64,000 nucleotides of DNA from a virus (IMGVR_UViG_3300044878_000087:130432-194431); one strand, 5' to 3'. Positions 17,276-56,943 are shown, counted from the first letter of the stretch. Notes: generated by a model from the letters alone, not told the origin. Numbers and translations are program-made.

Positions 17276-17277
17276 GC

Positions 17278-19001: not shown

Positions 19002-19004
19002 TCT

Positions 19005-20323: not shown

Positions 20324-20333
20324 AACTTTCCCC

Positions 20334-20498: not shown

Positions 20499-20525
20499 AG
20501 CTTACTCCATAAGACGACATAAAGA

Positions 20526-20541
20526 TGAGCCCGAAGGCTCA
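20526..20541 (-). terminator. hairpin TGAGCC-UUCG-GGCTCA (overlaps the stop of the 20539 gene) followed by CTTTATGTCGTCTTATGG
   Basis: family member. Confidence 0.4.
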
Positions 20542-20835
20542 CCCTGCAAAATCAAACTCGAACACAGCATCCGAGCTTTGGCGTGAAACGTTCCACAGCA
20601 TCACGTAGTATTCCCCAGCTGGTTGTTTCAGCTTCTTGAGGAACTTGGTGAGTTCAGCAGGCTCATTCACATAGCCTGATGCCATCATCATACCCACGTG
20701 ATAGTCTGCGGTATCAGCGATCGTATTGCTGGTGCCCTTAGGACACCACAACAACCGCTTAACCTTGGACGCTTCACATACTTGACCGATTGGGTCTTTA
20801 CCCGCCCGGTCACGACACACGCGGACTACGTGCAT
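20539..20835 (-). CDS. hypothetical protein (98 aa)
   Basis: ORF. Confidence 0.5.
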   Translation of the reverse strand: MHVVRVCRDRAGKDPIGQVCEASKVKRLLWCPKGTSNTIADTADYHVGMMMASGYVNEPAELTKFLKKLKQPAGEYYVMLWNVSRQSSDAVFEFDFAG

Positions 20836-21233
20836 TATTTCTGCCCGCGAGTGATGTCGAAACCTTCTTCACGGGTACGACGGGTGATGTCACCATTGAT
20901 AGCCAGGATAGCTTCATCTTTGGTGATGACCACGAAGTCGCCGATAGTGAACATCGAGTACTCGGCCAGAGTAGTCTGATCGATATTCTTACCGCTACGC
21001 AGGATCTTGATCAGATCACGCACGGTAGCGCCAGCATGTTGGTTACCCAGGCATGCTACAGCTTCCACCACTTTGCCTTCGAACTTGGCATCGTCTGGAG
21101 TCCGAAAGTGTTCATTGAACTCACTCGACTCTTCGTTGGAACTTACGGTGTAAGAACCGACGTTTACCTGCAAACGGTAATAGTGGGTCGATTGGTTGAA
21201 CAGCTTCAGATTCGTTGGTTGCAACTCAGACAT
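20835..21233 (-). CDS. hypothetical protein (132 aa)
   Basis: ORF, coupled. Confidence 0.5.
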   Translation of the reverse strand: MSELQPTNLKLFNQSTHYYRLQVNVGSYTVSSNEESSEFNEHFRTPDDAKFEGKVVEAVACLGNQHAGATVRDLIKILRSGKNIDQTTLAEYSMFTIGDFVVITKDEAILAINGDITRRTREEGFDITRGQK

Positions 21234-21594
21234 CTTTTACTTCCTTCTTGACGTAATACGGCAAACATGCCACAGGTTCATTTTCAAAGGTTTGAACGAT
21301 AAGCAAATTATATCTGCCAACCGGTACATTACAGACTGACGTACGGCCAATCTGTATCATTGCATCGCGAGCTTGTTGGTACTCCACGAAATAGACACGT
21401 TCAGTCTTTTCACCAAGCTTCACAAAATGGGCTTTACGTGTAGATTTAACCCGAGAGTAAACCTTACCGACAACGCGAGCATATTCATAAAGCGGATTAC
21501 TCGATTCATCCGCTAGTACGATGTAATACTTACGTCCCCAGTTTACGTTCCGCCGTTGGTCATCCCGGTAGTCCCACGGGCTCGACATACACAT
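21226..21594 (-). CDS. hypothetical protein (122 aa)
   Basis: ORF. Confidence 0.5.
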   Translation of the reverse strand: MCMSSPWDYRDDQRRNVNWGRKYYIVLADESSNPLYEYARVVGKVYSRVKSTRKAHFVKLGEKTERVYFVEYQQARDAMIQIGRTSVCNVPVGRYNLLIVQTFENEPVACLPYYVKKEVKDV

Positions 21595-21820
21595 AACCCT
21601 CAGGCATCTTTTCCATCATCGCTTCTGTTACTGGTGCATTGCGATATGGTTCACCATGAACACGAATACCGTAAGGTTCTTCTTTGGATGGGTCATACGA
21701 CATGATCCGAACCACGGTATCTTTAGGTGCATACAGGACTTGTCCCACACCTGGCTTGTTGATGAACACGTCCACATTTAACTGAACATATTCACAAACT
21801 CCGAATTTACGATCTACCAT
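21560..21820 (-). CDS. hypothetical protein (86 aa)
   Basis: ORF. Confidence 0.45.
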   Translation of the reverse strand: MVDRKFGVCEYVQLNVDVFINKPGVGQVLYAPKDTVVRIMSYDPSKEEPYGIRVHGEPYRNAPVTEAMMEKMPEGYVYVEPVGLPG

Positions 21821-21827
21821 TTTTACC

Positions 21828-22451
21828 TCAGTGCAGATATTTTGCCAAAGCTTGACGCGCTGGATGTTGATCGAATTCGACAGTAGCTCCGAATGGTTCT
21901 ACATCGAGTAGTACTTGCGGAACGTTGTTGTAACCTTCTTCGTTCGGCAAGCGACCTTGTTCATCTGGGAATACCAGTTGGATTACTTGAGCACTAGCTC
22001 GTTCGTCTTCAGTATAGAAAGCTGCGTGCTGCCAGCCTTGTCCAGCGAACCAACGATCTTTATCAATCCGACGAAGATGCAAACGATCAGTCGGTTTGAT
22101 TGGGGGCACAGTGGTATAGCCACGATGCTGCACTACGAAGGCGTAGTAGTCTTCGATATCGAGATCACCATCGACTGGTTCTTTATGCCACTCGAGGTAA
22201 GCCAACAAATTACCGATGGTTTCCCGAACGATCCCGAGTTGTTTATCGGTCAGGTTAACCCCCAGCACGATATCTGGTTGCCCATGACGAGCATTACCGA
22301 TCGTGGCCATTACCGGCGCCAGATCAGTATCACGACCGCTCTCGATGAATTCCCATTTGGCGTCACCCAGGTTCTCACGAATCTGTTCAACAGCCATCAG
22401 ACGAACTTCAGCAATACCAGCCTTACTGTGAAACTGGGTATACGACAGCAT
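21828..22451 (-). CDS. hypothetical protein (207 aa)
   Basis: ORF. Confidence 0.55.
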   Translation of the reverse strand: MLSYTQFHSKAGIAEVRLMAVEQIRENLGDAKWEFIESGRDTDLAPVMATIGNARHGQPDIVLGVNLTDKQLGIVRETIGNLLAYLEWHKEPVDGDLDIEDYYAFVVQHRGYTTVPPIKPTDRLHLRRIDKDRWFAGQGWQHAAFYTEDERASAQVIQLVFPDEQGRLPNEEGYNNVPQVLLDVEPFGATVEFDQHPARQALAKYLH

Positions 22452-22460
22452 TACATGTCC

Positions 22461-22838
22461 TCAGTTAGTCATATTTGATTCGCAACCGTGTTCTTTCATA
22501 CTACAGCGCAACCGTGCTTCTAATGCTTTTGCATCTTTGACAGACTTGGTAGGAAACTCCATGATCTTAATGTCAATAGCTTTTGGATCTCTTTCGGGAT
22601 CTACTAGGTATTGACTCAGGAATCTCTTATTTGGATGTCTGCCATTTTGAAACAGTTCGATTTGCTTATCCACTTCGGCGCTGACAGTACGCGAATGACC
22701 GATGATGCACCAACCAGTGTTGATGTGATCGATTATGTACGCACCGCTTGTTACCAGTTCAGCTCGTGCACCTCTACCAGCTCGGGTTGAGGACCACGTA
22801 TAAAACTTGTCATCTACTTTAAACATCACGCACTCCAA
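22461..22838 (-). CDS. hypothetical protein (125 aa)
   Basis: ORF. Confidence 0.5.
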   Translation of the reverse strand: MECVMFKVDDKFYTWSSTRAGRGARAELVTSGAYIIDHINTGWCIIGHSRTVSAEVDKQIELFQNGRHPNKRFLSQYLVDPERDPKAIDIKIMEFPTKSVKDAKALEARLRCSMKEHGCESNMTN

Positions 22839-22866
22839 TAATCACATTGGATTTAGGGTGCGAGTA

Positions 22867-23295
22867 TTACTTACCCACCAATACACCACGGCCAGACCAC
22901 AGTGCTTTAGCCCAGTCCAGGAAAGCAGTCACAAGTGGCACACTGGCCTCTAGACGCTCTTCTAACAGACGATCTGCATCAACAGCAGTGATGGGTTGAT
23001 CGATCGGTTGAATCGTCTCTGTTGCAGGCTGGAGAGCTTTCAAGTATTCGATCAGGCTCAGACGCATGTCCAGATAGATAATCCGGGTGCGACTACCTTT
23101 CGCTTCGAATGCCCACAGATACAGTTCTTCCAGATTCTTTACGGCAGGGAAGTCCTTAACGAATTCCTCGCGGTATGTGTCCAGGTCCAACAACTTGACC
23201 AACGTGGATTGACCCGCATTGGTTGGGATGTACGGATGTGGGATCAGATGTTTCTTGCAGACTTGACGAACGCGATCATTAAGAGCAGTAGCCAT
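22867..23295 (-). CDS. hypothetical protein (142 aa)
   Basis: ORF. Confidence 0.5.
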   Translation of the reverse strand: MATALNDRVRQVCKKHLIPHPYIPTNAGQSTLVKLLDLDTYREEFVKDFPAVKNLEELYLWAFEAKGSRTRIIYLDMRLSLIEYLKALQPATETIQPIDQPITAVDADRLLEERLEASVPLVTAFLDWAKALWSGRGVLVGK

Positions 23296-23506
23296 TTACT
23301 TGTTCCTTAGTAACGTAGAAATCGATTCCGTCTTTACCCTTGACGTTTAGGGTATTGCCGAGGTCTTCGATGAGTTCTAACTCATCACCTTTACTAGCGG
23401 CTGTTACGCCACCTTCAACTTCCCCGAAGGAAAGCTTGATGTCTTCTTTAGCTGTTAATGCCATCGACCCATACATCCTTACTGAAACCACGAGAAGCAC
23501 TGGCAC
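23279..23506 (-). CDS. small hypothetical protein (75 aa or shorter from an internal ATG)
   Basis: ORF; start uncertain. Confidence 0.4.
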   Translation of the reverse strand: MPVLLVVSVRMYGSMALTAKEDIKLSFGEVEGGVTAASKGDELELIEDLGNTLNVKGKDGIDFYVTKEQVNGYCS

Positions 23507-23792
23507 CGGATTTGGAGATCAGCATTTCGATTTCCGCATGGATGTCAGCGAGTTGGTAAATCAAATCAGCCCGACGCAAACGGTTAGCATCAGTACCAGC
23601 AGCCCGCTCAGCCTGGAATGCCATTTGGAACAGCATCTCGGCAGTTTGGCCAGCTGGTTGAATGCCCGTCTTGGAAAGGCAACGTACGACTTTCAGGTAA
23701 ACGATGCCGTGGATGTTCTTGTTCAGAAAATCCGTTTCCAGATCGTAACCGTAGGTCTGGCTGATGTAATCTTGAATGTTGTCAAATTCCAT
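23448..23792 (-). CDS. hypothetical protein (114 aa)
   Basis: ORF. Confidence 0.5.
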   Translation of the reverse strand: MEFDNIQDYISQTYGYDLETDFLNKNIHGIVYLKVVRCLSKTGIQPAGQTAEMLFQMAFQAERAAGTDANRLRRADLIYQLADIHAEIEMLISKSGASASRGFSKDVWVDGINS

Positions 23793-24076
23793 TATTTATA
23801 CTCGTTGAATGTATCGTCAAGGTCATGTGGGTTTACGGAGCCGACTTCACCGAAGTTGTCGACGTTAGTACAAACGAACATTTCGCCAGGGCGAAGATCG
23901 TCCGAATGTTCGATCTTGATCTGGTCCCCTTCATGGGCATACGGAATGTCGTGTTGGTTACCGTTACGATCGAGGATGGTAACGAAGATATCACGGGCTG
24001 CGGTCAGAACCATGCCCGGCTCTACCTTGGCCGCCGCAATTCCACACACAGCAAAGCGCAGTAGATTACCGATCAT
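23792..24076 (-). CDS. hypothetical protein (94 aa)
   Basis: RBS AGGAG. Confidence 0.5.
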   Translation of the reverse strand: MIGNLLRFAVCGIAAAKVEPGMVLTAARDIFVTILDRNGNQHDIPYAHEGDQIKIEHSDDLRPGEMFVCTNVDNFGEVGSVNPHDLDDTFNEYK

Positions 24077-24156
24077 GTTGATACTCCTAGATTGTCAATA
24101 ATGTCGCTCTCGTTACCAATCAGTAATGTAGAGCTGTAATTTTTTGCAACATAAAA

Positions 24157-24174
24157 GAGTCCCCGAAGGGACTC
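24157..24174 (-). terminator. hairpin GAGTCCC-UUCG-GGGACTC followed by TTTTATGTTGCAAAAAATTAC
   Basis: located 3 nt after the stop of the 24178 gene. Confidence 0.45.
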
Positions 24175-24177
24175 CAT

Positions 24178-24639
24178 TTAATCGAACTGTAGCTTCAAGC
24201 CTACGATCGGAGATTCACGATCAACATGGATCGTGCATTGACCATTCTTCGGGTCGAGTGTGAGATGGAAGCCCCAGCGTAGGCCAACCAGTTTGGTTAC
24301 GTGACCGATATCAATCTTGGCCACACCTTTACTTACATAAGCTGGATCTTGCAATACCACTGGTGCCATCCGCGTAACGGAATGGACCTGCAGGTTATCC
24401 CCTTTGTCGATATAAGCGATTGCTTTAATAGACATCGTTTTGCTACGACCATCGTTCTGGCACAGAGCGTACAGATCGATTGATTCTTCACCAGTTACTT
24501 TTACGAAACCGGTTTCAACAATATCACCACTCGGCAGACTTACCCGCTGAGGCATGGATTGCTGGTGTTGAACGAACAGCTGCGCATTGCTGTTTCGTTG
24601 GAATACTGGGAACTGCCCAGGACTGAGTTTTTCTGACAT
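24178..24639 (-). CDS. hypothetical protein (153 aa)
   Basis: ORF. Confidence 0.5.
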   Translation of the reverse strand: MSEKLSPGQFPVFQRNSNAQLFVQHQQSMPQRVSLPSGDIVETGFVKVTGEESIDLYALCQNDGRSKTMSIKAIAYIDKGDNLQVHSVTRMAPVVLQDPAYVSKGVAKIDIGHVTKLVGLRWGFHLTLDPKNGQCTIHVDRESPIVGLKLQFD

Positions 24640-24739
24640 GCTTTGTTCCTCACGAACGTTGACGTTACTACGATACCGAGTGCAGCTACAAGGCTTAGAA
24701 GAAACGTGATCTCGCCAAATGACGGACTGCTCACTTTTC

Positions 24740-25156
24740 TCACTGGGCTTTGCTCCACTTAAGCGATGCTATCGGCTTAGAAAGATTGGTCTGATCAAAC
24801 CGGACAATACGTTGTCCAACCAATCTGATTTGTAGCCGGAAGAACAGGATGTCTTCGGAGCTTCGTAGGATTGGGTTCAGCAATGCTGCTGACCCAGGAG
24901 TATGGTATCGTACAACACGATCCGTGATCGTTACATAGAAGTCATTCAACCCAGCGTTAAGCTTCTTACCGCCTTCTTCTGAGGTAAGCTTGTGGTTCTC
25001 AATAACTCGCTGATTACCATACAGCGTGGTAACGTCTACAGAATCGAAGTTCATTACCATTACAGGTTTGCTAACCCAATTAATCAGCCAATACACAGCT
25101 GCCATCGCCCCAAGTACAATCAGGGCCAATTTTGTTGCATCTACCTCAAACATCAT
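24740..25156 (-). CDS. membrane-anchored protein (138 aa)
   Basis: ORF with an N-terminal TM segment. Confidence 0.5.
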   Translation of the reverse strand: MMFEVDATKLALIVLGAMAAVYWLINWVSKPVMVMNFDSVDVTTLYGNQRVIENHKLTSEEGGKKLNAGLNDFYVTITDRVVRYHTPGSAALLNPILRSSEDILFFRLQIRLVGQRIVRFDQTNLSKPIASLKWSKAQ

Positions 25157-25425
25157 GCCTCCTCAACGTACGCCTTAGTTGCCTTTATCGTGTTCGCCAC
25201 AGAGTGACCTTTCGGGATCTCCAGTTCCGTGAGATCATCTCCCGTAGCTAGACTTCGTACGTTTTCCAACGTACCATCCAAACCGATATTAAACTCAACG
25301 GCCCCAGATGGGTGAATCCCAAGTGAGCGCCAGTTAACCAAATCCGAATCAATAATGAAGTGCCGCAATTTACCCAGAAACTCAGTAACCCACACATTGC
25401 CACATTTGATCAACTTGACGCTCAC
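25153..25425 (-). CDS. hypothetical protein (90 aa)
   Basis: ORF, coupled. Confidence 0.45.
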   Translation of the reverse strand: MSVKLIKCGNVWVTEFLGKLRHFIIDSDLVNWRSLGIHPSGAVEFNIGLDGTLENVRSLATGDDLTELEIPKGHSVANTIKATKAYVEEA

Positions 25426-25437
25426 AATCGCTGCTCC

Positions 25438-25869
25438 TTATGCTTCTTGTTTTGCCATTTCTGTACGCAACAGATCACCGATAGTGCGTGCTGGCTTTTT
25501 CTTCACTATAAGATCACCGAACTCAAGTTCTTTTGCCGTATCTGCTAACAACCGCAGATCAGCCAGAATTGTTTCGAACATCTGCTTACGACCAGTCACG
25601 ATAGAGATAGGGCCAGGTGCAGAACCGCCTTTCTCCAAAATGACCATCGCATTGATGTAATCATCGATCTCTTGTTGGATCATTTTGATGGTGTAACCAC
25701 TAGCCCAACGGAAACGCAGGTGCATGCCGCCAACCCGAGTTTCTGGAAAACGATCCAGGATAGTGCGGAAGTGTTCTTGTGGTACGAAGAAGCCCCAGCT
25801 ACGATACAGCGTGATAATGCTTTTGCGATCGGCCTTATCTGGGAAGCTATAGTTTTGCAGATCCATCAT
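25438..25869 (-). CDS. hypothetical protein (143 aa)
   Basis: ORF. Confidence 0.5.
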   Translation of the reverse strand: MMDLQNYSFPDKADRKSIITLYRSWGFFVPQEHFRTILDRFPETRVGGMHLRFRWASGYTIKMIQQEIDDYINAMVILEKGGSAPGPISIVTGRKQMFETILADLRLLADTAKELEFGDLIVKKKPARTIGDLLRTEMAKQEA

Positions 25870-26309
25870 TAGTCCTTAGGCAAGAATGCTTCGTAATGTT
25901 TCATCTTGTACAACATCGGTGTGAACATGCGACCGAACCGATGTGTGTAACGTTCGTTCTTCAAATCACGATTATCCATGAGCCACTTAAGTGCACGCTC
26001 TTGAATATCCTGGATATGCTTACCCATGACCAATACATGTGCCGTCTTGAATTGGTACTTGAGTGCCGAGTCCCAACGATTATCTTTAACGCACACAGCA
26101 ACTTCGAATACACCGTAACCACCGAACTTGTCGTACTGGCAGGTTTGCCAAGTCAAGTCTTCTGGTTCGATAATCAACAGATCCTGATAGCAGTATGATT
26201 CACGGATGCGAATATCGGACATCTCGGTTTTGCTTTCGATCTCATCTAAGTGGTATTCTTGTGAGATCACAAACTGCCGTAGATCACGCAGCTCCAACAT
26301 TAGCTTCAT
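25869..26309 (-). CDS. hypothetical protein (about 146 aa from MKLMLELRDL)
   Basis: RBS AAAGGA before the internal ATG; avoids the 164-bp overlap implied by the track start. Confidence 0.5.
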   Translation of the reverse strand: MKLMLELRDLRQFVISQEYHLDEIESKTEMSDIRIRESYCYQDLLIIEPEDLTWQTCQYDKFGGYGVFEVAVCVKDNRWDSALKYQFKTAHVLVMGKHIQDIQERALKWLMDNRDLKNERYTHRFGRMFTPMLYKMKHYEAFLPKD

Positions 26310-46852: not shown

Positions 46853-48313
46853 TTATACAGCCACAGGTGCTTCAATGGCAGGCTGTGGATTGTAGCCCAC
46901 AACTTCCAAGTCATGATAAGTCATGTCGAGGATCGAAGTACCGATTGGGAGTTTGATGTTCAACCGAGGTAGCTCATTATGCGGTGTGCGCTCTTGTTGT
47001 TCTCTTACCTGATCTAGATGGTTCAGATAAATGTGAGCATCGCCGACCATGTGCACGAGTTCTTCACCGTACATGTTGAATTGATGTGCCAGCTTGTGCG
47101 TCAAAGACGAATAGAACGTCAGGTTGTATGGTGCACCCAAGAACACGTCATTAGAACGCATATAGAAGATGCAAGTCAAGCCACGACGTGGAACATTCAG
47201 TTCATCGAGATAAGCATGGAGTTTATGCTCATCCCGTTTATAAGAACCATCTTCCACATGCATGAACACACCCAATGGATACGGTTCATGTGTCGTATAG
47301 ATGTCAGCACGACTACGCTTTGCGATGTCACTATGCAGCTCATCACGTTCACGCATCCAACGCTTCACGTAAATGTCATAGCGTTTTTCAGCAGACAGCT
47401 CACGCGTCCAGAACTGAATGAACGAGTGGCATGGAGGTAAAGCTTGTTCATCTACATACGCTGGGTTCCATGGGCACAGAATCAAGCGACGGGAATCTGG
47501 ATTGTTTTCCAGATCACGCAATAAGTTAGCTACCTGATCGATCTTACGAGTCATGCAGCGCTCATAACCTGAATCCATTGCAATCGTAAACCCGCGAGCT
47601 TTCATCTTCTCAGTAAGGGCTTCAAATTCTGCAATGGCGATATCTTGCTCTTCTGGATTACTCCACGAACCACACTTGATGTGACGGGTGTCTTCGATGT
47701 TACGGAACATCTCACCGTAGACTTTACCGAGTTCACCATCAACTACTTCTTGATCAGAGATACCCAGAGCTACGAAGAACTTGAACCAGATTGGATCTTC
47801 TTGATCCATCCAACTCATCCAGTTCTTGGCATCCTCGGTTTTGTCGAAAATGCCGTGGTGCTTCTTGATCCCTGGGGTTCCTACGTATTCGTAGATATTA
47901 AAGTCATCGCTTTCATAGACAAGTGTCCATACTGGTACAACGTCAGGCGTAGCACCAATGTCTAATACTACTGGCCGATCCCAACCGAAATGGTTACGCT
48001 TGTAGACACGACGCATTTCTTTCAGCAAACGTGGGCGATAGGTACCCGTACCTTCCAGTACCCATTCATCCCAGATGTTACAGTTGTTCTCTTTCAAGAA
48101 CTTCAGGCGGGTATCACCGGAGATCATCCAGTCTTCTTCGACCTGACCAGTTTTCAGATGAATCTTTTTGGTCGACACTGCAGCCAAGCGATAATCACTG
48201 ATGTCATAACGACGCATAACACCAGGTGCAGAAATTGTACCCGTTTTGGTGCGGTCTTCTTTTTGTGTACCACGATGCAGAACTTCCGTCTGCATAGTCA
48301 AGTAGTCTTTCAC
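46853..48313 (-). CDS. thymidylate synthase family enzyme (ThyA or dUMP hydroxymethylase-like) with a ~110-aa insertion after the NIWDEW motif
   Basis: N-terminal MKDYL..VL..GT.K.DRT.TGT; LPPCHSFIQFW active-site Cys; RSNDVFLGAPYN (Asn suggests uracil specificity). Confidence 0.8.
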   Translation of the reverse strand: MKDYLTMQTEVLHRGTQKEDRTKTGTISAPGVMRRYDISDYRLAAVSTKKIHLKTGQVEEDWMISGDTRLKFLKENNCNIWDEWVLEGTGTYRPRLLKEMRRVYKRNHFGWDRPVVLDIGATPDVVPVWTLVYESDDFNIYEYVGTPGIKKHHGIFDKTEDAKNWMSWMDQEDPIWFKFFVALGISDQEVVDGELGKVYGEMFRNIEDTRHIKCGSWSNPEEQDIAIAEFEALTEKMKARGFTIAMDSGYERCMTRKIDQVANLLRDLENNPDSRRLILCPWNPAYVDEQALPPCHSFIQFWTRELSAEKRYDIYVKRWMRERDELHSDIAKRSRADIYTTHEPYPLGVFMHVEDGSYKRDEHKLHAYLDELNVPRRGLTCIFYMRSNDVFLGAPYNLTFYSSLTHKLAHQFNMYGEELVHMVGDAHIYLNHLDQVREQQERTPHNELPRLNIKLPIGTSILDMTYHDLEVVGYNPQPAIEAPVAV

Positions 48314-48336: not shown

Positions 48337-48921
48337 TCATTGCCACAGTGCGTCATTTTTCCAGGTTGGGTGTTCTGGATTGAATACCACACAGAGATCA
48401 CGATTATGATGCAGTACCAATCGTGGCCAATCAGTAACTTTGTTCAGCGCTATTTGTAACTGTGTCAAGGTATAGTCGTAGATATCCAGATGACCACTGA
48501 GTTGGATACCTGCGGACAAATTCGGTACACGGTATACTCCATCACCTAATTCTAGATAGAGTGGTTTTTCCATGTGGTCTTTTGTCAGCGTCAGTCGAAC
48601 TTTCTCAAATTCAATCCGAGCCAAGTTCTGAATACGGATCTCACCCGTCGTGGTGTTGAACTGAATGGTGGAGATCAGTTCATCGAATGGTAAGCGATTA
48701 CGATAGATGTTCACATGCTTACGTTCACCATAGCTGGAGTACTGTACGGTAAACCCACCTTTAGGCATAGCGCCTTCTTTCGTCAACAATGTACCGCTAA
48801 CGAAATCTACGTTATTACCGATCAGTTCTGCCATGACCATTGCAGCACTGGTAAAGTGGATATCCACATCGAACTCAGTACGTTCACCTGTTGGTTTTTC
48901 ACAACCTGCACAGCAACCCAT
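48337..48921 (-). CDS. hypothetical protein (194 aa)
   Basis: RBS TAGGAG. Confidence 0.5.
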   Translation of the reverse strand: MGCCAGCEKPTGERTEFDVDIHFTSAAMVMAELIGNNVDFVSGTLLTKEGAMPKGGFTVQYSSYGERKHVNIYRNRLPFDELISTIQFNTTTGEIRIQNLARIEFEKVRLTLTKDHMEKPLYLELGDGVYRVPNLSAGIQLSGHLDIYDYTLTQLQIALNKVTDWPRLVLHHNRDLCVVFNPEHPTWKNDALWQ

Positions 48922-48955: not shown

Positions 48956-48973
48956 GGGGACCCGAAGGTCCCC
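48956..48973 (-). terminator. hairpin GGGGACC-UUCG-GGTCCCC followed by ATCCTATTTTCTTTTTTG
   Basis: GC stem plus a U-run after the stop of the NAMPT-like gene. Confidence 0.5.
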
Positions 48974-48979: not shown

Positions 48980-50812
48980 TTATGCGGCTTCTTTGAGTTC
49001 TGTGAAGAACGATTCGCGTGCGATCGACGCTTCGATACGTTCACGCATCTCAGACAACTTCACTTGACGCAGGAACTTACCATTACGGAACAACGGTTTC
49101 AGTTCACCCGATCCTTCCATCAGATTATCCCAGGTCATTTCGACTTCCTGTTCGAGACGGTAGTTGTGATCAGCATCCCGTACTACGCGCAGGAAGCCTT
49201 TAGCAGACTTCTTGGACAGTGCGGTCTTCGGATCTTTGTACAGCTCGATCAGTTCATCGTTCACTTCACAAGCAGTGGCCTTCATCGCCATGCCGAAAGT
49301 ATCACGGGTGTTCATCTGGTAGGTATAGGAACCGATACCCAGTACAACGTTCGACGATGCGAAGCCTTTCTCCGCCAGACGACGGAAGATTTCTTCAGTA
49401 CGTTCTACAGTGATCGAGTCACCATAGATCAGACCGATGTATTCATTCAGGACTTTGTAGCCCTTGGTGTTTACATGGCCACCGAAAGAAGCCCACAGCG
49501 ATTCGATAGCACCACGAGCTTCCACTTCACGCATTTCACGACCGAGGAATTCCTCAGCAGTGGAGTTGCTGAACTGGTGCGGGTTGCGGTGATTCTGGAG
49601 TTCGTAGTATTTGTCACCGATACGGATAGCTTCACCGTTGACAGCTTCCCAACCGAAGTCGTGCAACGCGGTCTTGAATGCTTCCATCGAGCCGAATTCG
49701 ACAAGATAGAAACCGCAGATCACGTGAACTGGATTACCCGAGTCTGGACGCACAACAACTTTGGCCAGACCGATCTCGTTCTTGATACGGCTTTCGATCT
49801 CAGCACGGATCGAAGGCAGCAGGTCTGCGATCACCGACCAGAAGTCGAACGAGTCACATACCAACGAGATGATACCGGTCTTCACTTTCTGCAGGATGAT
49901 TTCCAGAATGTATTCACGCTCACATTCCAGTTTCAGCTTGTCGACGAAAGCAGCCCAGTTCTCAGGAGCCACGGAATCCAGCTTGGAATCTTTGTCCAGC
50001 CATTTCAGCTTTTGTTTCAGGCGGGTCAGGATATTCGCAGTAGCCACGGCGTGTTCGGTAGCAGTAACAGAACCAGCAATGAGTTCCACGTCCGAATTCG
50101 CGTGATACAGTGCTTCCAGGTAATCGATAGCCGGGATGGTATCGGTACCAGCGAAAGGTAGCATGTGGCCAGCATTGGAACGACCAGCAGCTTCTGGACC
50201 AGGCATACCACGGAACGAGAAGTCGTGACCTTGCCAGATGATGTGATCACGGTTATCACAGGTACGCTCAGCCCAGTCTTCCATAACCCGACGATATTCG
50301 TAGGCGATGGTAGCGTTGGTGATCGACTGCCAGTTATACGAACTGGTGATGGTTTCCAGGTAGTTAACCAACCAGTAGTGTTCTTTATTATCATCGGAAC
50401 TGTAGACAACCCACAGCGGGATACCGATGTTAACACGTTCACCTTCTTCCAGTGCCAACACCGTGACAGGCAGGTAACCCAGGTCGTGCAGCTTAGCGAT
50501 CTGTTTGGTGGAGATGACGTCTTTACCACAAGCGTTATCGAAACGACGCTTGGTTTCTTTGATTGCTTTCTTCTTCTCTACTTGGAAGAAGGTACGATCC
50601 CACAGCTCAACCAGTTCTTGCCAGGTGCCATAGAGACCGAAGTTCACGACTTTGTTATCGTAGTGAACGGAGCAGGATTTCGAGTTCAGGAAGTTCTTCG
50701 CCGAACGCGGGGTGAAGTTTGAATACTTCCGGGTCGTGCCTTCCGGATACAGAGGACCGTGACCAGGTTTGTAGAAGTCGGTACCAGTTGCTGCTTTAAG
50801 CCATTGTGCCAT
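48980..50812 (-). CDS. NAMPT/PBEF-family phosphoribosyltransferase (610 aa); candidate Namat (nicotinamide ADPR transferase) or NadV
   Basis: matches to NAMPT motifs: HDFSFRG...AGTDT, RPDSGNP, IYGDS, LGIGSYTYQ; sits next to the Prs-like gene. Confidence 0.85.
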   Translation of the reverse strand: MAQWLKAATGTDFYKPGHGPLYPEGTTRKYSNFTPRSAKNFLNSKSCSVHYDNKVVNFGLYGTWQELVELWDRTFFQVEKKKAIKETKRRFDNACGKDVISTKQIAKLHDLGYLPVTVLALEEGERVNIGIPLWVVYSSDDNKEHYWLVNYLETITSSYNWQSITNATIAYEYRRVMEDWAERTCDNRDHIIWQGHDFSFRGMPGPEAAGRSNAGHMLPFAGTDTIPAIDYLEALYHANSDVELIAGSVTATEHAVATANILTRLKQKLKWLDKDSKLDSVAPENWAAFVDKLKLECEREYILEIILQKVKTGIISLVCDSFDFWSVIADLLPSIRAEIESRIKNEIGLAKVVVRPDSGNPVHVICGFYLVEFGSMEAFKTALHDFGWEAVNGEAIRIGDKYYELQNHRNPHQFSNSTAEEFLGREMREVEARGAIESLWASFGGHVNTKGYKVLNEYIGLIYGDSITVERTEEIFRRLAEKGFASSNVVLGIGSYTYQMNTRDTFGMAMKATACEVNDELIELYKDPKTALSKKSAKGFLRVVRDADHNYRLEQEVEMTWDNLMEGSGELKPLFRNGKFLRQVKLSEMRERIEASIARESFFTELKEAA

Positions 50813-50830: not shown

Positions 50831-51775
50831 TTACAGGTGCGTAAATGCGATCAGGTTTTCAGGATTGGTTTCACGTTCTGGAAGATCAACGTGATAGGTG
50901 TTCATGGTGTAGACTTTGTCGAAGACGTCAGTCAGGACCTGGACACCAGCAGAGAAGATGCCGTGAGTTACATACAGCGACAACGAACCCAGATCGTAGT
51001 CCTTCAGAACTTTTGCCAGTTCAGTAAAGGTACGGCCACCATCACAGATGTCGTCAACGATCAACAGGTCTTCACCAGCCAGATCAGTCAACTCCATAAC
51101 TTCATTGCCAGCAACGAAGCTATCGACGGTAGTACGCAGGATCTTGCCGTCACGAGTATTACGAACTTTGTTGGCGTATACTACACCTTTAAAGCCGAAC
51201 TCTTTGGCTAGCGATTCTACTTTCTTGCGTGCCCCAGCATCAGGCGCTACCAGAATGGTATTCGAAGGATCGATGCGATGATCACTCGCCCAGTCCAGCA
51301 TGTGCTTACGGAACAGATCGTTCAGCGAGAACACGCGTGCATTGTTCAGTACCGAGCCGATTACGTCTGAGTGTGGATCGGTCAGAATCACACGTTCTAC
51401 GTCCAGGCTGTTGATGACATGAGCAAATGCCTTAGCCGAGTTCGCTTCACCTGGATTGCACACACGGTCTTGACGAGCGTATGGCATGTAACCGATGTCC
51501 AACGTGATCGATGGGTTGGCCACAACGGCGTTCTCACGGATAGCGTTCACAGCCATGATCAGAGACCATGCTGCAGCAGCGTCGGGTAATGCGGCAACGA
51601 TACGATAGCTTTCGCCTTTGTACCACTGACCTTCACGACCCAGGCCATCTTCACGAGGGATCGATACGTTTACTTCACCTGCAGGAAACATCCGACCGTC
51701 ACGAATTTTGGATGGGAATGTATGTGTCACCCCCAAACCTTCTTGCGAAACGATCAACTTCAAATTCTGACTCAT
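50831..51775 (-). CDS. ribose-phosphate pyrophosphokinase family protein (Prs/Adps-like)
   Basis: IGYMPYARQDR and the PRPP-binding motif LLIVDDICDGGRTF; 314 aa. Confidence 0.85.
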   Translation of the reverse strand: MSQNLKLIVSQEGLGVTHTFPSKIRDGRMFPAGEVNVSIPREDGLGREGQWYKGESYRIVAALPDAAAAWSLIMAVNAIRENAVVANPSITLDIGYMPYARQDRVCNPGEANSAKAFAHVINSLDVERVILTDPHSDVIGSVLNNARVFSLNDLFRKHMLDWASDHRIDPSNTILVAPDAGARKKVESLAKEFGFKGVVYANKVRNTRDGKILRTTVDSFVAGNEVMELTDLAGEDLLIVDDICDGGRTFTELAKVLKDYDLGSLSLYVTHGIFSAGVQVLTDVFDKVYTMNTYHVDLPERETNPENLIAFTHL

Positions 51776-52113
51776 GCAGCTTCCTTTTCTTCCGCTTTGT
51801 GAATTGCAGTGAACACCAGGACAACATCACCCAGTTTTGTTTTGATATTGCTTTCAGCTTCATACCGGCAAGTGGTCAGGTCCATGTCGAGATGGGTTTC
51901 CTGATCACCACAACGTACCAGGAATCGTGCAACCTTCCCGAGTTCTACACCGCGTGCAATCACTTCGACTTCATTCGTCAGAATGTTATCGCCATGGAAA
52001 GCACCAACGAACGTAACTACATCGCACCCAGCATCACGTTGCAGGAAACGATCTTTGTGATAGGTCATTTCTTCTGGGTAAACACTGAAGTCATGACGTA
52101 CGAAATTGTCCAT
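51772..52113 (-). CDS. hypothetical protein (113 aa), coupled between the AAA+ ATPase and the Prs-like gene
   Basis: ATGA overlap with the Prs-like start. Confidence 0.5.
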   Translation of the reverse strand: MDNFVRHDFSVYPEEMTYHKDRFLQRDAGCDVVTFVGAFHGDNILTNEVEVIARGVELGKVARFLVRCGDQETHLDMDLTTCRYEAESNIKTKLGDVVLVFTAIHKAEEKEAA

Positions 52114-52122
52114 GTTATCCTC

Positions 52123-53490
52123 TTATGCAGCCGATACTAACTCCTGTGTGGGAGCAGTGCTTTTGTTCTTGAGTGGGCGCGGTGGCTCTGGTTGTATAGC
52201 GTAGTTCTCCGCGACGTATTTGTCGTCCAACGTTCCCAGCTTATCAATGAAAGCCAGGTGATCGTTAGGATGCTCCATGAAGATCCCTGCCAAAGTAGAA
52301 GCGGGAGTATCTGGGTACATTACATTACGATCGTAAGTAGGATTATCATACATCGTATCGATATAGCGCTTGATCTCAGGATCTTTAAGCGGCAGCACTT
52401 CGATCAGCTTGTTCACACGAGACGGACGGTAGACCGCTGGGTCGATCAGTTCCAGGTGGTTAGTAGTCAGTACGATAATAATGTCATCGAGCTCTACAAC
52501 ACCTTGCAGGACGTTGAGGAAGGTACTGAGCTGGATCTCACAGTCCATCAACAACGCTTCTGGTTTCTTATCAGCTCCACCGCCATCGAAGTCGGAGATC
52601 TCCATCTTCTTCGGACCGGTACGACGATGCAATGTCTTCACATCATCGAAGTCTTCAATGACCAGCATATCACCCGGCGAGAGCTTACCCATTAGTTCAA
52701 CGAGTTGTCTGCCATGGGACGCCAGGTTCAAGAAGTGGATGTCACGTTTGTACTTACGGGCACCACGTTTGATAAGCGACGTTTTACCAGTACCCGGAGG
52801 ACCGTGGAGAACGATGGTGTGCTTGTAAGCCAAACCACGTTTACGATACCAGGATTCATTGTTGATGTACCAGTCAATAGAACCGAAGAAGTCTTTCTCT
52901 ACTTCGGGATCGATAACTAGCGTTTCATCAACATCTAAACGCAAACGACCCTGATAACTCCAGCCCTCGTTATGAGGACCGTAGATACGGATGGAATCTT
53001 TGCATGGTTTGATTCGGAACTCTTCCACTAGTTCTTCGAATGGTTGTGTGGTTCGACCGAAAGTGTAGAGGGTGAACTCTTCCTTCTCGATATCGGTACC
53101 AGACGAATCCAAACGACGTACGTTGAACCAGAAGTAACGACCTTTCCAGATAAACCAGTGGAAGCCACCACCCGGACCGAATGCAGGATTATCACGATCG
53201 AAGGTTACCCGACGATTGCGATCGTACTTAGCCCATTTCGAATTGGAGAACCAACGCATGAACTCAGCGTAGTTCTGCAAGTCCATGGAGTACGTACCAG
53301 CACGCGTGAACGTCATCGATGAAATCGTGTTACGCTTGACGAAGTTCCACGCCGAAGTGGGGATAGTCCGCCCCAAATAACCCAACAGACCCATGAGACC
53401 TAACGTCATGAAACCTTTGACGGTAGAGTCCCCTGAGCTGAGCATTTCAAGCGTCTTGTGAAAGAACGCCAAGATGTCCGTGATTAACAT
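52123..53490 (-). CDS. BCS1-like membrane-anchored AAA+ ATPase
   Basis: N-terminal TM helix; Walker A LHGPPGTGKTS; Walker B MLVIEDFDD; BCS1-type architecture. Confidence 0.8.
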   Translation of the reverse strand: MLITDILAFFHKTLEMLSSGDSTVKGFMTLGLMGLLGYLGRTIPTSAWNFVKRNTISSMTFTRAGTYSMDLQNYAEFMRWFSNSKWAKYDRNRRVTFDRDNPAFGPGGGFHWFIWKGRYFWFNVRRLDSSGTDIEKEEFTLYTFGRTTQPFEELVEEFRIKPCKDSIRIYGPHNEGWSYQGRLRLDVDETLVIDPEVEKDFFGSIDWYINNESWYRKRGLAYKHTIVLHGPPGTGKTSLIKRGARKYKRDIHFLNLASHGRQLVELMGKLSPGDMLVIEDFDDVKTLHRRTGPKKMEISDFDGGGADKKPEALLMDCEIQLSTFLNVLQGVVELDDIIIVLTTNHLELIDPAVYRPSRVNKLIEVLPLKDPEIKRYIDTMYDNPTYDRNVMYPDTPASTLAGIFMEHPNDHLAFIDKLGTLDDKYVAENYAIQPEPPRPLKNKSTAPTQELVSAA

Positions 53491-54206
53491 TATTCCATCC
53501 CAGGCATTAGTAGTACGGTTGTGTCGAAACCATCAGCACGAATGAAGTCAAAGAATGCACCTTCCATATCAGCTTCTTCTTCTTCTTCTGGTGCCCCGAG
53601 TTCTTTCAGGTGGTTATCGCAATAAGCAACAACCGCTTCTGTTTGGCGTCTCACCAGTCTTAGCATTTCTGCCGTAAGTAATAGCACTACAGTGATGGTC
53701 AAGTGCGTGGTGGTACGTGGGTTATCGTAATGATGATCTTCCCGCGTATCCAGCCCTGCACCAGCTACCACCATATCGAAGTTCTCACGGAGCTGATCAT
53801 AATGCATCAACGGCTGCGAGCGAAGCCCAGCTGTTTCTACTCTGATCCCCCAGGACATGACGTGATTAATCGTTGCGGCATTTACCATGTCATGTACAGC
53901 GCCGTACGAATTGGAGATCTCGTTCAGATCGGGCCAATACGTTTTGATGTCTTCTGGTAATACCCACAGGTTACCATCACCCATACGAGCAACAGGAATA
54001 GTGTGGATATTAACCTGGATCAGTTCTTTTGAATCGATCGATAGCTTTTCTGGTAGCCATGCCAATTGATCATACAGCAGATCATTCAAGTCGTACTTGT
54101 TGATCTGTGTGAATTCTGGTTTGTTGCTCAACTCACGAAAGATCTGGCCATCACGCTGAAAGAGATCACGCTTGACGATGTGGGCCTTTTGTTCCACCAG
54201 GTTCAC
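53490..54206 (-). CDS. hypothetical protein (238 aa), coupled upstream of the AAA+ ATPase
   Basis: 1-nt stop/start overlap. Confidence 0.55.
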   Translation of the reverse strand: MNLVEQKAHIVKRDLFQRDGQIFRELSNKPEFTQINKYDLNDLLYDQLAWLPEKLSIDSKELIQVNIHTIPVARMGDGNLWVLPEDIKTYWPDLNEISNSYGAVHDMVNAATINHVMSWGIRVETAGLRSQPLMHYDQLRENFDMVVAGAGLDTREDHHYDNPRTTTHLTITVVLLLTAEMLRLVRRQTEAVVAYCDNHLKELGAPEEEEEADMEGAFFDFIRADGFDTTVLLMPGME

Positions 54207-54919
54207 GCTTTACCTCCTTGGTGTACTTGCCAGCCAGCTGGCAGACTACGACGGGTTTTAGGTGCGGGCAATGCGGTACCACTTACATTGCCGAAGTTCA
54301 GCAATGGGGCAGCCTGTTCTTTAGCAGCAGGTTTTTCAGCACGCTGTGCAATGGTCGGACGGCGCATGAGTTCAACGTTGGTTGGCAGTTTATTACCTTC
54401 CTCATCATGGGTCTGTAGTTCGATACCGTGGACAGCGTAAGGTGCAGCTTCAATTGGTTTAGCGGCAGAGAAGGTTGGCGGCATGGTGTCTTGTGCAGAA
54501 CCGGGCCATACCACACCACTTTCATTCAGCATTTTGTGCAGATCTTGAACTTGCTGAATGGCGTACAGTTCACGCTCGTAGTTCGGAATCTGGAGAATGC
54601 TTTCATGTTGGTCACAGGTCGGCACAACGAAAGCCAGTACAGCTTCGTATGGAACTTCCAGAGAAACGTCTGCACCATTGAAGCCACACATGAAACTGAA
54701 GTTGTCTTCATTGTAGCGGAAGTTGCGTGTTGCTTGTGCAGCGATGTTCAAACGAATCTGATACAACCCGTTCACTTGTGGTTCCAACAAACCGACATCA
54801 AACATCCGAGCATCTGCGATGATGTGGATGCGACTGGAAATACCCATGTCGACGAACCATTGGATCATCGCGTTCATAATTACACGGCACATGTTGGTAT
54901 CATTTTGTACTTGATTCAC
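54203..54919 (-). CDS. hypothetical protein (238 aa), first gene of the AAA+ operon
   Basis: ATGA overlap. Confidence 0.55.
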   Translation of the reverse strand: MNQVQNDTNMCRVIMNAMIQWFVDMGISSRIHIIADARMFDVGLLEPQVNGLYQIRLNIAAQATRNFRYNEDNFSFMCGFNGADVSLEVPYEAVLAFVVPTCDQHESILQIPNYERELYAIQQVQDLHKMLNESGVVWPGSAQDTMPPTFSAAKPIEAAPYAVHGIELQTHDEEGNKLPTNVELMRRPTIAQRAEKPAAKEQAAPLLNFGNVSGTALPAPKTRRSLPAGWQVHQGGKA

Positions 54920-54929: not shown

Positions 54930-55640
54930 TTAGTTGAATTGCCAGTTGGGATATTTGGAACTTTTTGCACGTCTTTTAGCTGATGACTTTGAAATACCAA
55001 ATGCCTTAGCTGCAAAGGAGGCACTTGGATAAACAATCCCATCAACGCTAATTGGATAACCTAACTTTTCTGTCGGTGCTGTACGTTGCCGATCTGTTAC
55101 TTCTACAAGTGCAGCTTTCGCTTTTCTCTCAGGTGTCCATGATTTAAGACTTGCCTTAGACATAGCTTCACGTCTTTCTGGTGACCATTGTTCTTTAACA
55201 GCTATACTTTTCTTAGCTCGTTCTTCATCAGTCCAGCGTTCTGATGATACCGCACTATGGGCTAATCTTTTATCGTCAGTCCACGCGATTGCCATTGCTG
55301 TCGCATGTTCTGCTTTTCTTTCAATCGTCCACGATGCAGATATTGCTTCTTTAACTACATCAGTGCGTGGCCGCCCCACTTGGTTCATCATGGCGATATT
55401 GTCGACATTATCATGGATCAAATGTAATTCGTGGGCGCGTGCATCTTCTATAGTCGCTTGCTCAGTAAACTCCCAGATTAGTTTCTTATCCAGATTAAAG
55501 TTGTACTGTAGCATTTCGTTAACATGTACTCCTCGCCGAAGATCGGACAAGTGGTAATGTCGACGTTTGATAAAGTTTTCAGTGCTGCCGATATAAAACA
55601 TCCCGGTAAAGGGATGGGTGATTCTGTATGTACCGATCAT
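54930..55640 (-). CDS. Seg-like GIY-YIG homing endonuclease with C-terminal repeated W(T/S)xER(K/R) NUMOD-like DNA-binding motifs
   Basis: GTYRITHPFTGMFYIGSTENF... GIY-YIG signature; four or more W.xER repeats; RBS AAGGAG; own promoter copy at 55677. Confidence 0.75.
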   Translation of the reverse strand: MIGTYRITHPFTGMFYIGSTENFIKRRHYHLSDLRRGVHVNEMLQYNFNLDKKLIWEFTEQATIEDARAHELHLIHDNVDNIAMMNQVGRPRTDVVKEAISASWTIERKAEHATAMAIAWTDDKRLAHSAVSSERWTDEERAKKSIAVKEQWSPERREAMSKASLKSWTPERKAKAALVEVTDRQRTAPTEKLGYPISVDGIVYPSASFAAKAFGISKSSAKRRAKSSKYPNWQFN

Positions 55641-55676
55641 ACATGGTCCTAAAATTCTCCTTTGGTATCAAGTTAG

Positions 55677-55695
55677 TTATATAGATTTCAGATTT
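55677..55695 (-). promoter_or_regulatory. minus-strand promoter-like motif AAATCTGAAATCTATATAAC (variant of the 19-mer family), upstream of the homing endonuclease gene
   Basis: family resemblance. Confidence 0.4.
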
Positions 55696-55701
55696 GTTGC
55701 A

Positions 55702-55917
55702 CTAAGCCCGCAGCACACCAAATATACAAAGCGCATCCACCACGCAGGCGACGAGCAAAATATACTTAAAGCGTCTTTTTGTTTTGGGTAGGTAGAAGGA
55801 CCACCACGTGTAGGCTGATCCACACCCAACCAAGATACCGATAGACAGGGTCTGAGCAATCGCCCAGAAGACGATAAACAGAATCGTGTGCTCGTTCATC
55901 GTTTCCAGATCTTCCAC
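55702..55917 (-). CDS. small membrane protein (71 aa or 65 aa from the second ATG)
   Basis: hydrophobic ORF. Confidence 0.4.
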   Translation of the reverse strand: MEDLETMNEHTILFIVFWAIAQTLSIGILVGCGSAYTWWSFYLPKTKRRFKYILLVACVVDALCIFGVLRA

Positions 55918-56019
55918 AGTGTACTGCCAAGTTCATAAAGGCCATAGCAAACTAATCCTACAGCTACAACCATCATGCCCAGTTCGATATACATGTCTTG
56001 CGCATTGAATAGAATCATT
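55897..56019 (-). CDS. possible 40-aa membrane peptide (MILFNAQDMYIELGMMVVAVGLVCYGLYELG...)
   Basis: ATGA/AATGA overlaps with both neighbours; no clear RBS. Confidence 0.25.
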
Positions 56020-56191
56020 TTATTAGCATCGCTATTAATACACCGATTAACATTAACACCAGTCCAGCAAACCCTTGGTCAGCAGCTGCTCGACCGGTGT
56101 CGTGTGCATCTGCCTGTGATTCCCGACGCTCGAAGAAGATACTACATCCAGTCGAGAATATTACAATTGCTACTACCCACAACACCCACAT
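56016..56191 (-). CDS. possible 58-aa two-TM peptide (MWVLWVVAIVIFSTGC...)
   Basis: TAATG overlap with the upstream gene. Confidence 0.3.
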
Positions 56192-56373
56192 TACTTCGCT
56201 CCCAGTACCAACAAGCCAATACCAACAAAGAACATAAACCAGAAGATCGCTTTAGCTACTCCTGTGTGAATGTCTTTGGAAGTAGCCAGCATAAAACCAA
56301 AGAACATCAGTATCGAACCGATGACTTGGGTGAGTGTAGCGGGGTTCGTATATGCCAACATGTTAAACTCCAA
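56191..56373 (-). CDS. small membrane protein (60 aa)
   Basis: hydrophobic ORF. Confidence 0.4.
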   Translation of the reverse strand: MEFNMLAYTNPATLTQVIGSILMFFGFMLATSKDIHTGVAKAIFWFMFFVGIGLLVLGAK

Positions 56374-56572
56374 TGAGATGAATTAGAGCACCTGCAATGA
56401 TTGCCACCACACTACCAGCAACAACCGGTTTGTTAGTTCCCAACATATCGCCAAAGCCGAAAAAGAATCCCATGAATCCCAGGGTAATTAAGGTTGTTCC
56501 GAATGTTTCCATATAAATCTCGATACATGAAAAGGGACATAAAGCCTTCCGCGAGGGAAGGCTAAATATCAA
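56363..56572 (-). CDS. small membrane protein (69 aa)
   Basis: hydrophobic ORF. Confidence 0.4.
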   Translation of the reverse strand: MIFSLPSRKALCPFSCIEIYMETFGTTLITLGFMGFFFGFGDMLGTNKPVVAGSVVAIIAGALIHLIGV

Positions 56573-56943
56573 TACGCTAATGTTACGGTATGCCCGTAAT
56601 CATTCTGCATGCAGCTGACGTACGAAGTCTGATACGTGTCAATAGGATTTTTCTTTTCCCGATAGACTGTATCCACTTCTGTTACCGCTTTAGGAAGAAT
56701 GCTGTAAAGAACGTTATCTTTATTCTTCACAACGTATCCCTTTAGGGAGAGAAGGTTAGAGCGCCATTGTTGCTTGGACTCCCCGCGTGATTTCGCTTCT
56801 GCTCCAGCCTTGGCCATTTCGGCTAGACTTTCACAGTAGGTACCATTCACGACAACCGTCTCTGTTGCCATTGAATTACTCGCAGCCGCTAATGCGGTTA
56901 CAAGAACCAACGACCTCAGTACGTGTGTTAAACATTGCATCAC
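56569..56943 (-). CDS. secreted hypothetical protein (124 aa)
   Basis: N-terminal signal peptide. Confidence 0.5.
   Translation of the reverse strand: MMQCLTHVLRSLVLVTALAAASNSMATETVVVNGTYCESLAEMAKAGAEAKSRGESKQQWRSNLLSLKGYVVKNKDNVLYSILPKAVTEVDTVYREKKNPIDTYQTSYVSCMQNDYGHTVTLAY

Follow-up and report, generated by a model that had tools for sequence, protein, structure and literature searches.

An early-type gene unit of a Tepukevirus-like jumbo phage that probably strings together separate accessory units: an SspB-like pair, a BCS1-family ATPase and NARP1-like genes

Results

Layout and origin of the locus

Here we describe a locus in a 64,000-nucleotide (nt) stretch of viral DNA, IMGVR_UViG_3300044878_000087:130432-194431 (the window, whose first letter is position 1 for all coordinates below), in which a BCS1-family AAA+ ATPase is encoded together with two proteins of 238 amino acids (aa), a 113-aa protein and two proteins resembling those of the NAD+-rebuilding operon NARP1. 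An earlier note on this DNA had taken the ATPase gene and its three small neighbours as a four-gene operon whose tight coupling to the NAD+ genes suggested a functional module. Our analysis makes it probable that the locus is instead one early unit in which independent accessory host-interaction units are strung together. All four open reading frames (ORFs) named in the earlier note are present where it had placed them, on the minus strand, and the features of the locus are as follows.

54203..54919, minus strand: SspB-like adaptor, 238 aa, orthologue of phiKZ gp232 (Pfam SspB, PDB, PHROG and hhalign)
53490..54206, minus strand: partner of the SspB-like protein, 238 aa, acidic, pI 4.75, orthologue of phiKZ gp233 (hidden Markov model (HMM), hhalign and synteny)
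52123..53490, minus strand: BCS1-family AAA+ ATPase, 455 aa, orthologue of phiKZ gp286 (Pfam, phrog_7485 and yeast Bcs1 match)
51772..52113, minus strand: 113-aa all-beta (sandwich-like) protein (confident structure prediction)
50831..51775, minus strand: Prs-like protein, probable Adps of NARP1 (Pfam Pribosyltran, Pribosyl_synth and Pribosyltran_N; phrog_619, E 9e-73)
48980..50812, minus strand: NAMPT-like protein, 610 aa, probable Namat of NARP1 (Pfam NAPRTase, E 3e-32, and NAMPT_N; phrog_448, E 3e-172)
55668..55700, minus strand: phiKZ-type early (virion RNA polymerase) promoter-like motif, 33 nt, GCAACAAATCTGAAATCTATATAACTAACTTGA (consensus match)
48956..48973, minus strand: terminator-like GC-rich hairpin GGGGACCTTCGGGTCCCC with T-rich tail (no strong minus-strand hairpin between it and the promoter motif)

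The block shares 72-74% DNA identity with the Pseudomonas jumbo phages Psa21 (Tepukevirus), D6 and RVTF4, and two proteins of the window have identical copies on one 310,743-bp contig of the Joint Genome Institute (JGI). Psa21 is a phiKZ-like phage with homologues of the shell protein and of PhuZ (PMC6544186). Judged by sequence, the source of the window is a Tepukevirus-like (Psa21/D6/RVTF4) relative of phiKZ, a nucleus-forming jumbo phage. The order SspB-like gene, gene for the second 238-aa protein, ATPase gene, 113-aa gene, Prs-like gene, NAMPT-like gene, 194-aa gene and thymidylate synthase (ThyA) gene is kept in Psa21, D6, RVTF4 and metagenomic relatives, synteny of the whole block being seen solely in the Tepukevirus-like group.

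The earlier note had all junctions of the operon overlapping by 1-4 nt, which is correct for three of them: the SspB-like gene and the partner gene share the 4 nt GTGA (54203-54206), the partner and ATPase genes overlap by 1 nt in TAATG (at 53490) and the 113-aa gene runs into the start of the Prs-like gene through a 4-nt ATGA overlap (51772-51775). The ATPase and 113-aa genes, by contrast, are separated by a 9-nt spacer that holds a GAGGA Shine-Dalgarno sequence. Because overlaps and tight packing are the norm along the whole co-directional stretch (e.g. at 56569/56572, 56363/56373 and 56191), the overlaps do not delimit a four-gene unit. Apparent natural deletions in the ATPase and Prs-like genes of the metagenomic scaffold L014 were rejected, as L014 7792-7891 and 9039-9138 are assembly gaps, one read directly as 100 N and the other of the same size.

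An SspB-like protein and its conserved partner

The first 238-aa protein, left as unknown in the earlier note, is SspB-like: its match to Pfam SspB (PF04386) exceeds the gathering score (31.4 bits versus a cut-off of 27), it is matched by the SspB structures 1zsz/1ou8 in the PDB (E 7e-4) and by the PHROG family "SspB-like", and its orthologues are annotated as stringent starvation protein B in RVTF4 and by JGI. The NCBIfam SspB equivalog level was not reached by this protein (35 bits versus cut-offs of at least 135). Comparison of the SspB-like family with phiKZ gp232 by hhalign gave a probability of 96.8% (E 2e-10). A substrate-binding domain (residues ~14-108) is followed in the protein by a long linker, in which short motifs are conserved, and by a C-terminal tail that ends in PAGWQVHQGGKA.

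In an alignment of 13 SspB-like homologues the C-terminus is nearly invariant and reads [LW]x[VL]IQGGKA (LRVIQGGKA in the D6 group), which can be set beside the endings RPALRVVK of E. coli SspB, PKLTVIKGGKK of phiKZ gp232 and KPTLTVVK of Erwinia phage RAY gp39. The LRVVK peptide of SspB is its tether to the N-domain of ClpX, and since the phage tails resemble this tethering tail, the phage SspB-like proteins may likewise dock on host ClpX. Close relatives of the SspB-like protein occur in 53 phage records, all from Pseudomonas phages (versus 173 records for the ATPase), and every SspB-like-bearing Pseudomonas jumbo phage examined also encodes the ATPase. Outside Pseudomonas phages we also noted an SspB-like gene in Erwinia phage RAY (gp39, at 2501-2953 of our locus L019), with a tail near-identical to the E. 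coli tether, and one in Xanthomonas phage RTH11 (2495-3034 of L020) with the different ending RAPRKPKS; neither RAY nor RTH11 has a gp233-like neighbour of this gene.

The second 238-aa protein had also been recorded as unknown, and it can now be assigned as the orthologue of phiKZ gp233 by an HMM of 21 members and by synteny. Single-sequence searches with this partner protein matched solely Tepukevirus-like relatives, and its profile, run against 1.8 billion cluster representatives, returned 19 matches at E <= 0.001, about 17 of which are proteins of ~224-244 aa in the partner family. The 21-member HMM matched gp233 with 34.3 bits (E 9e-13 for a single comparison) over HMM positions 29-231 and gp233 residues 23-230, and hhalign between the partner family and gp233 agreed more weakly (E 7.6e-5). 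The phiKZ gene order is gp232, two tiny ORFs, gp233 and then ThyA (gp235), with no ATPase gene nearby, so that the succession of SspB-like gene, partner gene and, farther downstream, ThyA gene is common to the window and phiKZ. Because gp232 and gp233 are neighbours in phiKZ as well, the SspB-like protein and its partner form a conserved pair that exists without an adjacent ATPase gene. The AlphaFold2 model of the partner was poor (predicted local distance difference test score of 50.6); searching BFVD with it retrieved the Psa21 orthologue and scattered Nudix hydrolases at template modelling (TM) scores <= 0.3, and a Nudix hydrolase assignment was rejected on the ground that the sequence has no Nudix box.

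A BCS1-family ATPase that is widespread in jumbo phages

The earlier note had called the ATPase a BCS1-type protein, and this is borne out by Pfam BCS1_N (PF08740; residues 34-161, 46.6 bits versus a cut-off of 28.1) and AAA, which is above threshold as well, and by yeast Bcs1 (6sh3) as the best PDB sequence match (phmmer, E 7e-22), the alignment of residues 73-365 beginning at Bcs1 residue 95 and thus including the N-domain. From its N-terminus the protein comprises an amphipathic helix, a hydrophobic glycine-rich segment (22-40), BCS1_N (34-161), the AAA domain (226-365) and a low-complexity C-terminal tail. The catalytic motifs quoted from it were correct (Walker A GPPGTGKT at 230-237, Walker B MLVIEDFDD at 275-283), and its arginine-finger region TTNH...RPSRV aligns to TTNH...RPGRI of Bcs1. 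As to the N-terminal transmembrane helix that had been proposed, a hydrophobic segment does exist at 22-40, but its score is moderate (19-residue Kyte-Doolittle mean of 1.07). The position of this segment is conserved in 13 phage homologues (scores of 1.0-2.0) with R/K-x-x-P directly after it, and anchoring of the ATPase in a membrane by its N-terminal segment is plausible.

That BCS1-type proteins would be unusual in phages, as the earlier note had it, does not hold. Searches by tblastn with the ATPase found 173 phage records, 72 of which cover at least 80% of the protein, and the matches include phiKZ gp286, PA1C, Noxifer, RSL2, Munch, Moabite, CR5, Miami, CcrColossus and the 142-kb phiTE. 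A PHROG family also exists for it (phrog_7485, E 1.9e-108, residues 13-423 aligned to profile positions 11-417 of 430), and BCS1 orthologues have been described in all three jumbo-phage groups, with a proposed role in membrane-proximal assembly (Iyer et al. 2021, PMC7824862). When bacteria and archaea were scanned with one genome for each species, the only match was a weak one confined to AAA. Among the PADLOC defence models no significant full-length match was found, the ATPase giving only short matches to IetA and TRIP13 in the P-loop region and the other three proteins none; as this is P-loop noise only, the locus lies outside the defence systems captured there.

Published screens bear on the phiKZ orthologue. 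The gp286 protein is recovered with 70S ribosomes on fractionation and forms cross-links with the L7/L12 stalk (PMC10449902), and its antisense knock-down leaves plaque counts unchanged and lowers ChmA (PMC12571901). In transposon sequencing of phiKZ, gp286 tolerates 20-55 insertion sites with high reads, and gp232, gp233, gp285 and gp286 together range over 13-55 insertion sites and 10,000-26,000 reads (PMC12676376 supplement). These four genes fall within the non-essential region orf184-304, for which the authors suggest host-interaction or defence-related adaptations (PMC12676376). Our literature search on phiKZ gp232, gp233 and gp286 found no functional study beyond such screens.

The 113-aa protein and the NARP1-like genes

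The 113-aa protein is confined to the Tepukevirus-like lineage. It was modelled confidently as a seven-stranded beta protein, for which no informative structural neighbours were found, the BFVD matches to other small phiKZ-like proteins being weak. One BFVD match of this model was a 194-aa protein of Psa21 (E 4e-4, TM 0.53). Since a protein of this length is also encoded between the NAMPT-like and ThyA genes (48337-48921, minus strand), the small proteins on either side of NARP1 may be related in structure; hhalign comparisons of the 113-aa protein with Noxifer gp316 and with the 194-aa protein of the window were both negative. In the metagenomic relative L015 an extra 94-aa gene stands between the 111-aa gene found there and the Prs-like gene.

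NARP1 is a two-gene operon of Adps and Namat that is self-sufficient and stays functional when knocked into another phage (10.1101/2024.02.11.579819). The Prs-like and NAMPT-like genes of the window are the probable Adps and Namat of such a system, as indicated by their families and order.

A probable early transcription unit

The core of the motif at 55668..55700 equals the phiKZ sequence TATATTAC and the 201phi2-1 consensus (PMC7058600 Table 2), and motifs of this kind serve the virion RNA polymerase as early promoters (PMC7598289). A motif of the GCAACAAATCTGAAATCTATATAACTAACTTGA type is located 35-45 nt upstream of the SspB-like start in Psa21, RVTF4, D6, L011, L013 and L015. The window has about eight such motifs, all on the coding strand and each before a Shine-Dalgarno sequence and an ATG, with an extended consensus of approximately CAAAAAATCTCAGATCTATATTACTT.ATTG:

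12417, 24123, 29186, 36426, 41612, 55676, 60384 and 63897, all minus strand: early-promoter-like sites, 30-45 nt upstream of a Shine-Dalgarno sequence and ATG

With at most one mismatch, the 10-mer core is found 13 times in the window versus 5.4 occurrences expected, and the eight sites are probably the early-promoter set of the phage.

Downstream of 55668-55700 no further early-promoter motif is found until 41.6 kb, and the terminator-like hairpin at 48956..48973, placed 7 nt past the NAMPT-like stop codon, is likely the 3' end of the unit. Co-transcription of the four genes with the Prs-like and NAMPT-like genes thus agrees with one early motif upstream and a first terminator-like signal after the NAMPT-like stop, and the genes from the SspB-like through the NAMPT-like one probably form a single early transcript. 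Motifs of the TATATTAC type also precede phiKZ gp230.2 (leading to gp232), phiKZ gp283.1 (leading to gp286) and the PA1C gene that is coupled to its ATPase gene. Early expression would fit host take-over or counter-defence better than virion assembly.

The ATPase has other neighbours in other phages

The earlier note had taken the tight coupling as a sign of a functional module with NAD+ reconstitution. This is not supported, given the unrelated neighbours that the ATPase gene has elsewhere, the distance between the corresponding phiKZ loci and the self-sufficiency of NARP1. No Prs, NAMPT or SspB gene neighbours the ATPase gene in phiKZ, PA1C, Noxifer, Derbicus, Munch, phiTE or RSL2, and an all-against-all BLASTP of 23 neighbouring proteins from eight phages disclosed no conserved ATPase partner. 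Phage phiKZ gp285 and the PA1C gene upstream of the ATPase gene were considered as relatives of the 238-aa protein and rejected as unrelated. In phiKZ, gp286 is 30 kb from gp232/gp233, with different neighbours and separate early-promoter motifs; in Xanthomonas phage RTH11 the SspB-like gene is ~164 kb from the ATPase gene, and the annotated neighbours of the SspB-like gene in RAY include no ATPase. The window also encodes, at 15194-16592 (minus strand) and ~36 kb from its ATPase gene, homologues of phiKZ gp287 (49% identity) and of the gene just downstream of the PA1C ATPase gene (37%). Because these homologues remain at 15.2-16.6 kb, synteny is broken here and the ATPase gene has changed its place relative to them in one lineage.

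Flanking features

Between the promoter-like motif and the SspB-like gene the window carries one further gene:

54930..55640, minus strand: GIY-YIG / I-TevI-like homing endonuclease (Pfam GIY-YIG and I-TevI_DNA-bd)

No homing endonuclease is found in this interval in Psa21, D6, RVTF4 or the three metagenomic relatives L011, L013 and L015, and by this comparison it is a passenger outside the conserved unit. As the site is empty in all of these, it looks like a recent free-standing insertion into the 5' leader.

Just upstream of the promoter motif, a minus-strand run (55702-56943) encodes hydrophobic mini-proteins of 71, 58, 60 and 69 aa with one or two predicted membrane helices each, as well as a 124-aa protein with a signal-peptide-like N-terminus; three of the genes in this run mutually overlap. 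At the other end, the thymidylate synthase of the window (46853-48313, minus strand) is, at 486 aa, far longer than typical ThyA. Since Psa21, D6 and phiKZ gp235 have a similar length, the protein appears to carry large insertions or an extra domain.

Discussion

We favour the reading that the locus probably combines several independent units behind one early promoter. In the first of these, the SspB-like protein would dimerise like SspB, dock on the N-domain of host ClpX through its tail, and either deliver a chosen target to host ClpXP or block host adaptors, the gp233-like partner being the cargo or a specificity subunit. This proposal builds on the SspB domain, the long linker and the C-terminal P-x-[L/W]-x-V-[I/V] tail that is like the ClpX-tethering motif. 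The BCS1-family ATPase, on the basis of family membership, intact ATPase motifs and the conserved N-terminal hydrophobic segment, may form a ring anchored in a membrane, with folded proteins as the substrates that it remodels or moves, either at the inner membrane or at the early-infection vesicle, and would act early, not in virion assembly. The lineage-specific small beta-sandwich protein would be a separate unit, and NARP1 (Adps and Namat) would rebuild NAD+ from ADP-ribose and nicotinamide. The units were probably juxtaposed by rearrangement in this lineage and would share early timing and accessory status, with no physical complex between them. As a general class, an anti-defence or host-interaction role is plausible.

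Several observations sit uneasily with this reading. The Kyte-Doolittle score of ATPase segment 22-40 (1.07) is below the classical transmembrane threshold of 1.6, itself a rule of thumb, and the cross-link of gp286 to the ribosomal L7/L12 stalk is not predicted by a simple membrane-translocase picture. The tail of the window's own SspB-like protein, WQVHQGGKA, is a degenerate form of the LRVI/LTVI motif, and the promoter and terminator are motif matches only. Moreover, the stop-start overlap between the partner and ATPase genes, or a gap of <=3 nt, is found in all seven relatives examined, and selection for co-expression could lie behind this kept spacing.

The same spacing, which holds in every Tepukevirus-like relative, speaks for a dedicated AAA+ machine of the phage. 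The SspB-like protein and its partner would then be substrate adaptors for the phage's BCS1-like ATPase, and not for host ClpX, and would supply a membrane-anchored ring with selected proteins, which might be folded. Adaptors and AAA+ motors pair naturally in function, and all SspB-like-bearing Pseudomonas jumbo phages examined encode the ATPase. We nonetheless hold this machine to be unlikely, as the phiKZ loci are 30 kb apart behind different early-promoter motifs, the ATPase is in 173 phage records versus 53 (all from Pseudomonas phages) for close SspB-like relatives, and the tail looks like the one by which E. coli SspB binds ClpX, PTLTVVK of RAY being nearly identical to it. To our knowledge, BCS1-type ATPases have no ClpX-like zinc-binding N-domain on which an SspB-type tail could dock, and this too counts against such a machine. 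In a narrower form, recruitment would be peculiar to Tepukevirus-like phages, where the SspB-like protein and its partner would serve the phage's own ring as an adaptor-guided translocase or extractase, acting early at the inner membrane or early-infection vesicle near membrane-proximal ribosomes. This is a long shot; if true, BCS1-type machines would have their first adaptor-assisted example, and this example would be a candidate carrier of proteins across the lipid compartment by which the chimallivirus genome is initially enclosed.

A late role of the ATPase in membrane-proximal prohead or virion assembly, in which it would translocate folded head-bound proteins, is a published inference from BCS1 biology (Iyer et al. 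2021, PMC7824862) that suits the spread of the family over unrelated jumbo-phage groups and the 142-kb phiTE. We give it rather little credence, for early-promoter motifs lie ahead of the ATPase unit in the window, phiKZ and PA1C, phiKZ gp286 tolerates 20-55 transposon insertions and can be knocked down without plaque loss (PMC12676376, PMC12571901), and this knock-down lowers ChmA, an early product (PMC12571901). A single module, finally, would join the four genes to the NAD+ genes, for example to serve or protect NAD+ reconstitution by remodelling membranes or translocating proteins. The likely co-transcription, the 4 nt (ATGA) that the 113-aa and Adps-like genes share and the conserved block order in the Tepukevirus-like group speak for it. 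It seems very improbable to us given that the two NARP1 genes are enough in unrelated phages and upon knock-in (10.1101/2024.02.11.579819), that the ATPase gene is never beside Prs or NAMPT genes in the seven other contexts and that the 111-aa and Prs-like genes of L015 have the 94-aa gene between them.

The reading of independent units under shared early control has consequences beyond this locus. BCS1-like ATPases are among the most widespread uncharacterised jumbo-phage enzymes, and the early-promoter motifs before their genes (in the window, at phiKZ gp286 and in PA1C) argue for an early host-interaction role and against the published guess of virion assembly. SspB mimics are found in chimalliviruses of at least three genera, with the ClpX-tether-like tail kept in Tepukevirus-like phages, phiKZ and RAY, and lead one to expect that host ClpXP is reprogrammed or blocked by nucleus-forming phages. 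As evidence for a functional module, translational coupling is weak where a phage genome is densely packed. That BCS1-type ATPases are common in jumbo phages is already known; as far as gene order tells, what is lineage-specific here is their placement beside the SspB-like pair and NARP1.

Comparison with known systems

Bacterial SspB is a specificity-enhancing adaptor of ClpXP for ssrA-tagged proteins. The phage protein shares its PF04386 substrate-binding domain and its long acidic or flexible linker, and the basic, proline-preceded L-x-V-[VI] tail of the phage family resembles RPALRVVK of E. coli. It differs in a longer linker with the conserved motifs PYAVHG, LPT..ELM.R and PLLNFG, in the extension of the tail by GGKA, in the degenerate tail (WQVH) of the window's own protein and in being paired with a conserved ~236-aa partner, whereas bacterial SspB has none.

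Mitochondrial Bcs1 (yeast 6sh3, mouse 6uko) is a heptameric AAA+ translocase of the folded Rieske protein. Like it, the phage ATPase carries one AAA cassette behind the Bcs1-specific N-domain, shows the Walker A and Walker B motifs together with an arginine-finger region (RPSRV), and has an N-terminal hydrophobic segment with basic residues after it. Unlike it, the ATPase is phage-encoded and has no mitochondrial targeting; its hydrophobic segment is weak (Kyte-Doolittle 1.07) and it carries an extra low-complexity C-terminal tail.

The phiKZ orthologue, gp286, is 31% identical over 77% of the length (tblastn) and has the same N-terminal architecture, and both ATPase genes lie behind an early-type promoter motif. 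Because the match falls in two pieces, gp286 (508 aa) appears to carry extra sequence. The ATPase gene of the window is coupled to the gp233-like gene and followed by the 113-aa gene and NARP1, whereas gp286 is coupled to gp285, which is unrelated, and has gp287 after it.

The NARP1 operon has the Prs-like and NAMPT-like genes in the same order and from the same Pfam families as the window (10.1101/2024.02.11.579819), the difference being that the pair in the window forms the 3' end of a longer, probably early, unit.

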